Shown here: piece by piece, positions 3 through 650 of the stretch
How the letters are laid out: each line of letters opens with the position of its first letter
How positions within the stretch are numbered: position 1 is the stretch's first letter
DNA from: a virus
Length of the DNA stretch: 64,000 nucleotides
IMG/VR virus record: IMGVR_UViG_3300033145_000788
Coordinates: 34,977 to 98,976 of that record
Strand: one strand, 5' to 3'
Notes under the pieces: model-generated
Seen by the model: only the letters and a program-made list of their open reading frames with translations
Told to the model about the DNA's origin: nothing
The model's database searches: none
Program-made: the position numbers and the translations under genes

Positions 3-281
3 GAGATATATGATCGTGAGAAAGAGAGCCGTTCTGTCTCCGAAAAAATTACCTGGAGTAGAAATACAGAAGGCAAACTGATTGAATGTGTTTGGAAGGA
101 TACTATGCCGAGTCACCGTCATGGCCATGCGCTCAGGATGGTCATAAAGCACTTCCTTGCGGACTATTGGTTTGTGGGGCGGATGCTCCAGGGTTTGCCC
201 ACGAATCCGAGTTATGCCGAGGCGATTTTGGGGAAAGAACATCGGACGATTAGTCCCCGTGAGAGGGGGTGGAAGTTTTAG
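3..281 (+). CDS. C-terminal fragment of a Nop-domain Tas (TIGR-associated, IS110-related) protein; 5' part lies outside the window
   Basis: Not in the ORF track. Frame 3 reads EIYDREK...HRHGHALRMVIKHFLADYWFVGRMLQGLPTNPSYAEAILGKEH...KF*, which aligns by eye with the C-terminus of 4236-5369 (KIYDRHK...HANNRAMRKMMQIFLIHLWVIWRQLLGLPTPLGYAENHLKH). A 36-nt array follows directly. Confidence 0.8.
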   Translation, partial: EIYDREKESRSVSEKITWSRNTEGKLIECVWKDTMPSHRHGHALRMVIKHFLADYWFVGRMLQGLPTNPSYAEAILGKEHRTISPRERGWKF

Positions 282-302
282 AATGAAAAAGTTAAGATGG
301 AG

Positions 303-650
303 AAGAAACCCATCCCACTGAAGCGAGCTAACGAACCAAAGAAACCCACTGATTATAAGCGAGCCAAGGTGATAAAGAAACCCAGTTAGCGGAAGCGAGC
401 TACGGTTAGCAAGAAAGCCATACAAGAAAAGCGAGTTAAATTATATAAGAAATTCGGTAATGAAAAGCAAGCCATTTCTGGGAAGGAATCCATTATCGGC
501 AAGCGAGCCAAAAAAAATAAGAAACCCACATCGAGGAAGTGAGCTACAAAAAAAAAGAAAACCATTGATTAGAAGCGAGCTATGGCCCAAAAGAAAACCA
601 GTCTACAAAAGCGAGCCATAGACCTCAAGAAACCCAAGGTCAAGAAGCGA
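303..650 (+). ncRNA. TIGR-like dual-repeat guide-RNA array 1 (about 10 units, 36-nt period)
   Basis: AAGAAACCCA-N8-AAGCGAGC(T/C)A-N8 repeated; loop repeats start at 303, 339, 375 ... 627, exactly +36 each; spacers variable. Confidence 0.9.

Follow-up and report, generated by a model that had tools for sequence, protein, structure and literature searches.

The first 650 nucleotides of the DNA analyzed here raise the question of whether a phage that carries one system of the TIGR-Tas family (Faure et al., 2025; PMC12045711) also encodes a second one, and to which subtype and functional state that second system belongs. An open reading frame at positions 3-281 (plus strand) overruns the start of the analyzed stretch (the window, 64,000 nucleotides) and is followed by a periodic repeat array. 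The original prediction, drawn from these letters, was that the frame is the 3' end of a separate Tas gene with an array of its own, and it looked to the upstream DNA for the N-terminal domain and a possible further array.

The window corresponds to bases 34977-98976 of the 98,976-bp IMG/VR record IMGVR_UViG_3300033145_000788, which has direct terminal repeats, is rated 100% complete, and derives from an uncultured 99-kb tailed phage. Six kb of upstream DNA were added as segment L005 (G000:C1:28977-36976), whose coordinates convert to window coordinates by subtraction of 6000. Peptide scans of IMG/VR based on the DnaE and TasR proteins of this phage returned no close phage relative, and the top isolated-phage matches of its DnaE are Streptomyces phages at approximately 36% identity, aligned only over residues 1-796.

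The tasH Gene and Its Product

The phage record completes the gene and bears out the prediction of a second, separate Tas protein. The full reading frame (L005:5328-6281, equal to G000:C1:34304-35257 and to window -672 to 281, plus strand) starts 672 nt ahead of the window, is preceded by an AAGGA ribosome-binding site, and encodes 317 aa. The part within the window (3-281) consists of 92 codons and a TAG stop, and encodes the C-terminal Nop region, in which the Tyr/His processing loop (Y296, H305) lies. Its proposed homology to the C-terminus of the 377-aa protein encoded at 4236-5369 is confirmed by an alignment to residues 315-351 of that protein (41% identity over 37 aa, E = 3e-07), which itself matches the solved TaTasR (9MTY) at E = 1.9e-33.

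In a phmmer search of the PDB, residues 19-316 of the full protein match the solved SpTasH of Salicola phage CGphi29 (PDB 21KL, 9W03, 9W04; E = 2.8e-90), while residues 112-292 match TaTasR (E = 9.6e-08) and residues 31-71 weakly match the HNH DNase of pyocin AP41. The Salicola gene aligns by tblastn over 100% of the TasH query at 48% identity, and a global alignment with SpTasH gives 49.7%. Because the 317-aa protein matches SpTasH from end to end, its subtype is TasH. The upstream DNA supplies an N-terminal HNH domain with a predicted catalytic His, and the C-terminal region is a Nop-type RNA-binding domain homologous to those of characterized Tas proteins. By homology, then, the protein is a TasH with HNH, putative coiled-coil, and Nop regions, separate from the TasR at 4236-5369.

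Residues of known or presumed function are largely retained in the alignment with SpTasH. W256 and H263 correspond to W249 and H256 of SpTasH, which stack on the displaced strand. Within the HNH domain, H60, H64, and N51 correspond to SpTasH H54, H58, and N45, and the GG motif is also kept; H54 is the residue that was mutated to obtain dead SpTasH (bioRxiv 10.64898/2026.08.11.744272). The processing Tyr (SpTasH Y289; PMC13421893) is retained as Y296. The processing His (H296 in SpTasH) is displaced by one residue to H305 in an 'LGxxHRTI' variant, which is the majority form of the clade and occurs in 11 of 16 aligned TasH sequences, the present protein counted. The putative central coiled-coil region aligns to SpTasH without large gaps, but four residues named as part of the SpTasH dimer interface are replaced (R103 by L109, S105 by D111, F109 by H115, and R120 by E126; bioRxiv 10.64898/2026.08.11.744272). 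Two further differences count against a reading of full function: the SpTasH RNA-end contacts R286, E292, and K293 are changed, and the N-terminal Cys of most homologues is Phe. We read the altered interface residues and RNA-end contacts as probable normal divergence.

Membership in the IS110 family of transposases was considered and rejected, as the PF02371 score (17.2 bits) falls below the cut-off of 21.3 and the N-terminus is HNH, not DEDD. The distant likeness to IS110 bridge-RNA recombinases lies in the RNA-binding Nop-like region (the same PF02371 score; phrog_4285, E = 2.8e-17). Unlike those recombinases, the present system lacks both a DEDD/RuvC-like transposase domain and a single bridge RNA; it has an HNH domain and a multi-unit array in their place, and no mark of a mobile unit was noticed by inspection, as opposed to a dedicated search for insertion-sequence ends. 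PHROGs labels both Tas proteins of this phage 'transposase' (phrog_4285), which poses a risk of mis-annotation in automated pipelines. 'Transposase' and IS110 labels are the usual mislabels of this fold.

The Downstream Dual-Repeat Array

The array occupies 285-650 (plus strand) and comprises 10 tigRNA units of 36 nt, each consisting of an edge repeat AAGCGAGC(T/C)A, an 8-nt spacer A, a loop repeat AAGAAACCCA, and an 8-nt spacer B (10+8+10+8). These sizes agree with those that define dual-repeat TIGR arrays, in which two repeats of 8-12 nt alternate with spacers of 8-9 nt (up to 12 nt) in a 36-nt unit. As the original prediction had it, the array begins close behind the gene: 21 nt separate the tasH stop codon, whose last base is 281, from the first AAGAAACCCA at 303. 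Ten repeats of the AAGAAACCCA type follow one another at 303, 339, and so on to 627 with a period of exactly 36, interleaved with nine repeats of the AAGCGAGC(T/C)A type and a 3'-truncated tenth, AAGCGA (645-650); the first edge (285-294) lacks its 5' part or is degenerate. We take AAGCGAGCYA as the edge repeat and AAGAAACCCA as the loop repeat. Both repeat types start with AAG and end with CCA or CTA, that is, with the box D and box C motifs AG...C[C/T]A of SpTIGR, and half of the downstream edge repeats have CTA as box C.

The middle of the array is eroded. Units 5-8 (429-572, plus strand) hold the degenerate repeats AAGCGAGTTA, AAGAAATTCG, AAGCAAGCCA, AAGGAATCCA, and AAGTGAGCTA, three of which (AAGAAATTCG, AAGCAAGCCA, and AAGGAATCCA) had been singled out beforehand together with two poly-A spacers; the latter are present as the A-rich, nearly poly-A AAAAAAAT and CAAAAAAA. 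With 4 of the 10 downstream units degenerate and two of the spacers close to poly-A, some of the array may no longer be functional.

A period of 36 nt equals 12 codons, and a coding tandem repeat of 12 residues, a CRISPR array, or chance periodicity might be proposed in place of a guide array. Thirty-six is a multiple of three, and short reading frames do cover parts of the array (460-621 on the plus strand; 386-565 and 3-425 on the minus strand), but no frame is open across it, and an alternation of 10 fixed and 8 free nucleotides is not codon-like. Chance is contradicted by the counts: the edge-N8-loop pattern with up to 3 mismatches has 9 matches in the 64-kb window, every one of them inside the array, whereas 100 dinucleotide shuffles gave 0.02 on average and never more than 1. 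CRISPR-Cas, which would call for a single repeat of approximately 25-36 nt and spacers of like length, is rejected on the two alternating 10-nt repeats, the 8-nt spacers, and the lack of cas genes among the neighbors. Moreover, TasH genes in 15 unrelated viral contigs are flanked by the same repeat words, which recur in the Salicola array, known from experiment to be processed, and the chance that this is anything but a guide array is negligible.

Tandem Repeats Finder did not report the array at its thresholds because half of each unit is variable, and an Rfam search of the array found no family at E <=1. Folding of the array RNA gave no excess of secondary structure over shuffles (z 0.2), which is what a dual-repeat array should show. 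The TasH spacers likewise show no excess of near-identical pairs (P 0.18) or of shared 6-mers (P 0.10) over shuffles, and spacer duplication as a mark of array growth is therefore unsupported for this array.

Upstream Array, Transcription Signals, and Gene Neighborhood

A second array, the existence of which had been left to be checked, lies ahead of the gene (L005:5121-5274, window -879 to -726); it has 4 units, all with CCA-type edges, and together with the 10 downstream units brings the TasH system to 14 guides. Approximately 15 nt ahead of this array is a promoter-like site, TTTAAA-N17-TATAAT (L005:5067-5113, hexamers 5078-5106). A copy of it follows the downstream array (TTTAAA at 669-674, 17 nt, TATAAT at 692-697, plus strand) before a 184-aa gene at 718-1272. 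Both sites have 10 of 12 matches, and the two copies are identical at all specified motif positions, the 17-nt spacer lying outside the comparison. An extended 30-position form of the motif (AAGAAAAAGTTTAAA-17 nt-TATAATATAGGTA) has four plus-strand copies in the genome (G000:C1:5093, 34043, 35634, and 57553, the last two being window 658 and 22577), and the two copies with zero mismatches bracket the tasH unit. This suggests that tasH and the recombination operon may belong to one regulatory class. No promoter-like site was found between the arrays and tasH, and a single transcript running from array through tasH to array would be the simplest model. At the end of the operon is an AT-only palindrome, TTTTTCTTAAGAAAAA (652-667, plus strand); no strong intrinsic terminator was found 3' of the downstream array, which also counts against a reading of full function.

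The neighbors of tasH are genes for a DnaE-UDG protein, the 184-aa protein of no assigned function, a gp32-like SSB, and a UvsX/RecA-like protein. The gp32-like SSB and the UvsX/RecA-like recombinase lie between the TasH and TasR systems, and the two systems together are flanked by the DnaE-UDG fusion upstream and a 5'-3' exonuclease downstream. The fusion protein (L005:1731-5063, window -4269 to -937) is a DnaE-type polymerase with PHP, Pol III alpha, and finger domains, fused at its C-terminus to a uracil-DNA glycosylase domain (PF03167, E = 1.8e-22, residues 956-1097). Farther upstream, a 204-aa HNH endonuclease frame (L005:565-1176, minus strand, window -5435 to -4824; PF01844, E = 5e-08) runs antisense within a 553-aa open frame (L005:73-1734), whose ends match DNA methyltransferase (PF01555, two stretches). 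To judge from this arrangement, the 204-aa frame looks like a homing-type insertion into a methylase gene.

With the gene, both arrays, and their putative promoter in view, the eroded units can be weighed. One might suppose a decaying, non-functional remnant of a TIGR-TasH system, in which the gene owes its intactness to chance or to recent arrival and the array is eroding without useful guides; the degenerate units 5-8 with the spacers AAAAAAAT and CAAAAAAA would fit this. TasH is moreover a singleton at 90% identity among approximately 15 billion proteins, as is the co-resident TasR, both being known from this contig alone; because TasH is such a singleton, purifying selection on it is not measurable from close relatives. 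However, the 317-codon frame is unbroken and retains every catalytic residue tested, at least 8 of the 14 units across both arrays have intact repeats on both sides, and the promoter copy equals that of the neighboring recombination operon at each specified motif position. The functional Salicola array bears similarly degenerate units (AAAACAATCA, AAGGCAGGCA, AAGCTAGCCA), and we consider a remnant very unlikely.

Relation to the Salicola System and to Other TasH Loci

This type of array, and a protein 50% identical to the present one, have already been characterized biochemically and structurally (PMC12045711; PMC13421893; bioRxiv 10.64898/2026.08.11.744272). The reference is SpTIGR-TasH of Salicola phage CGphi29 (NC_020844, gene SLPG_00018), whose protein has the same domain order of HNH, putative coiled coil in the present protein, and Nop. 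The Salicola array reads AAGACAACCA-N8-AAGCGAGCCA-N8, so that the present loop repeat is 2 nt off and the edge repeat 0-1 nt off, with the same 36-nt unit, 10-nt repeats, and 8-nt spacers, and with the 16 nt of guide per unit that were described for SpTIGR (Faure et al., PMC12045711). Both arrays lie directly 3' of the gene and end in a truncated edge repeat, which in Salicola is AAGCGAGCC before the terminator. The two loci differ in that the upstream array is present here and not in Salicola, in that the present array ends in a weak AT palindrome whereas the Salicola array ends in a GC hairpin terminator, and in gene context, the present tasH sitting in a replication/recombination module and the Salicola tasH between head genes. 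The present genome also holds a TasR, whereas the Salicola phage gave a single Tas match in a search with the TasH query alone.

The same organization recurs across the clade. Fifteen IMG/VR loci encode TasH homologues at 44-64% identity; a period-36 array lies directly beside the gene in all 15, and arrays stand on both sides in 9 of the 14 that have the whole gene on the contig. Wherever a repeat consensus could be resolved among these loci, it has AAG...CA ends and spacers of 8 nt, and the edge repeats fall into two dialects, GCGAGCCA and (A/G)TGAA(T/C)CA, that share those ends and that spacer length. In a star-like, poorly resolved protein tree, the present protein occupies a long branch of its own, and setting the tree against repeat type gave no further information. 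One homologue, from IMGVR_UViG_3300032163_000079 (L008:2980-3933), has lost both HNH His residues (PRPRMKKQG in place of HxxxH) while keeping a 7-9-unit array, and may be a naturally dead TasH working as a binder. The locus analyzed here is real and probably functional, an ordinary new TasH orthologue of a well-characterized family.

The analogy of the family to box C/D s(no)RNPs (Nop5/Nop56/58), drawn from PMC12045711, applies here as well: two guides per RNA, box C/D-like motifs, and a dimeric Nop-domain protein. Unlike those particles, the present system involves no K-turn, L7Ae, or fibrillarin, and it has a DNA target and a nuclease effector.

The Co-Resident TasR System

The TasR locus spans window 3924-5740; its arrays, of TGCGAGCTA-N9-TGAAATCTA-N9 units, lie at 3924-4076 upstream of the gene (4 units) and at 5387-5740 downstream of it (9 units). 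Compared with it and with TaTIGR-TasR of a Thermoproteota archaeon (9MTY), the TasH system has the same Nop and probable coiled-coil protein scaffold, and the two systems of this phage are built alike, from 36-nt units of two repeats and two spacers in arrays that flank the gene on either side. They differ in their parts: TasR has a RuvC nuclease domain, box D UG, 9-nt repeats, and 9-nt spacers, whereas TasH has an HNH domain, box D AG, 10-nt repeats, and 8-nt spacers. A substitution of AG for TG after each spacer, with the preceding base fixed as A and 8 variable nucleotides left, had been proposed for the array at 285-650, and it is seen when that array is set against those at 3924-4076 and 5387-5740 (TGAAATCTA and TGCGAGCTA, 9-nt spacers). 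The fixed A belongs to the 10-nt repeat itself, which the whole TasH clade has in common. The further proposal, an RNA specificity of its own, holds as far as the motifs go, in that AG faces UG in box D and 8-nt spacers face 9-nt ones, and may reflect separate RNA recognition by the two proteins; the AAG...CA format with 8-nt spacers is common to the Salicola array and the 15 IMG/VR TasH loci, as far as their consensus resolved.

An 8-nt edge core, GCGAGCTA or GCGAGC(T/C)A, is identical in the TasH and TasR arrays (window 321-618 and 3960-5713), so that the edge repeats of the two systems differ only in the preceding bases (AA vs. T) and in spacer length. The Tyr...His C-terminal loop is kept in both Tas proteins. 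The shared core could, to judge from these motifs, represent a common processing site with separate loading. An exchange of repeats between the two sets of arrays was also considered and found unnecessary, because the Salicola array, in a phage searched with the TasH query alone, shows like box C variation (CTA, CCA, TCA, and TTA).

The TasR arrays have irregularities of their own. One solo unit (loop repeat at 5405) is 66 nt out of phase, two consecutive upstream units (window 3996-4062) have the identical spacer A TAAACTTTT, and two downstream spacer Bs (GAAGTTGAT and GAAATTGAT) are 1 nt apart. These similar spacers hint at unit duplication, and the overall excess is weak (P 0.08).

The two systems stand 4 kb apart in one phage. 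A second Tas gene was found in none of 10 other TasH-bearing IMG/VR records, where the TasR query matched the TasH gene alone; 8 of these records are partial, and of the 2 with terminal repeats one is rated only 55% complete. In the literature, we found no paper in which the terms TasH, TasR, and 'co-occur' appear together. The pairing is the sole unusual point of the locus, as judged on those 10 other TasH records beside 20,096 published loci.

Proposed Mechanism and Targets

The evidence above makes it very probable that the phage encodes a complete dual-repeat TIGR-TasH system, which would be expressed as one transcript, processed into tigRNAs, and used for guided double-strand cutting, as deduced from homology with SpTasH. 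The mechanism is modeled on that described in PMC12045711, PMC13421893, and the 2026 preprints. From the promoter TTTAAA-N17-TATAAT, which lies outside the window, one transcript would carry the 4-unit array, tasH, and the 10-unit array. The C-terminal loop (Y296/H305) would cut within each edge repeat, putatively at AAGCG|AGCYA, freeing 36-nt tigRNAs, one of which would be bound by a TasH dimer through the box D (AG) and box C (C(C/T)A) ends of its edge and loop repeats. Each of the two 8-nt spacers would then base-pair with a different strand of a 16-bp site, and the two N-terminal HNH domains (H60) would cut one strand each. We infer that the top strand of the site reads as spacer A and then spacer B in reverse complement, because of the 8-nt 3' overhangs of SpTasH, the 'C-5' rule, and strand polarity.

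Target searches with this geometry gave no convincing site. In the phage's own genome (98,976 bp), the 27 guides (14 TasH and 13 TasR), tried in both geometries with gaps of 0-2, found no site with one mismatch or fewer; the few self sites with 2 mismatches are near chance level and involve AT-rich guides. Such an absence of self-targets is as expected for an active nuclease. An exact 16-mer scan of IMG/VR with unit 3 (spacer A plus the reverse complement of spacer B) returned 32 contigs, which by their flanks fall into approximately 20 unrelated sequence families, about the number expected by chance, and the set was rejected as a real target. The other guides found no match at one mismatch or fewer in 386 kb of retrieved loci. 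The same limit on target searches is stated in a 2026 preprint.

One alternative is that TasH serves chiefly to bind DNA under RNA guidance or to repress transcription, directed at the host, at rival genes, or at a step of the phage life cycle, or as a nickase, instead of cutting both strands. Precedents exist within the family: for dead SpTasH, binding is enough to repress transcription, and single mismatches convert the active enzyme to a nickase (bioRxiv 10.64898/2026.08.11.744272; PMC13421893), TasA and dead TasR are repressors (bioRxiv 10.64898/2026.09.09.750476), and heterologous TasR blocked neither phage nor conjugation (PMC12045711). However, the HNH residues required for SpTasH cleavage are kept here, and self-regulation is unlikely because no guide matches the phage's own genome; overall, we regard a role without double-strand cutting as highly improbable. 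For a cutting TasH, the role is likely to be an attack on competing mobile elements or on host DNA.

Implications

A more speculative proposal, which we hold to be improbable, is that the two nucleases form a programmable 'marker-exclusion' device, being mutually orthogonal in their guides (TasH with AG/CCA and 8-nt spacers, TasR with UG/CUA and 9-nt spacers). If this were so, both nucleases would be embedded in the module of DnaE, gp32-like, UvsX-like, and exonuclease genes and share its promoter class, and guided breaks in co-infecting relatives or in host DNA would feed the phage recombination machinery. In that case the GCGAGCTA edge core, identical in the two systems, would be a processing code common to both, with loading kept separate.

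What the locus adds to the family is one more fairly divergent TasH orthologue (approximately 50% identity) with 14 natural guides, in a family that is under development as a compact, PAM-free platform for genome editing. Its value lies in the setting, a complete genome in which TasH and TasR lie 4 kb apart with related yet distinct repeat codes and clear promoter boundaries. The locus thereby offers a natural setting in which to test whether guides are orthogonal between Tas subtypes, and also to examine the co-transcription of tas genes with their arrays, a question posed by the 2026 literature.
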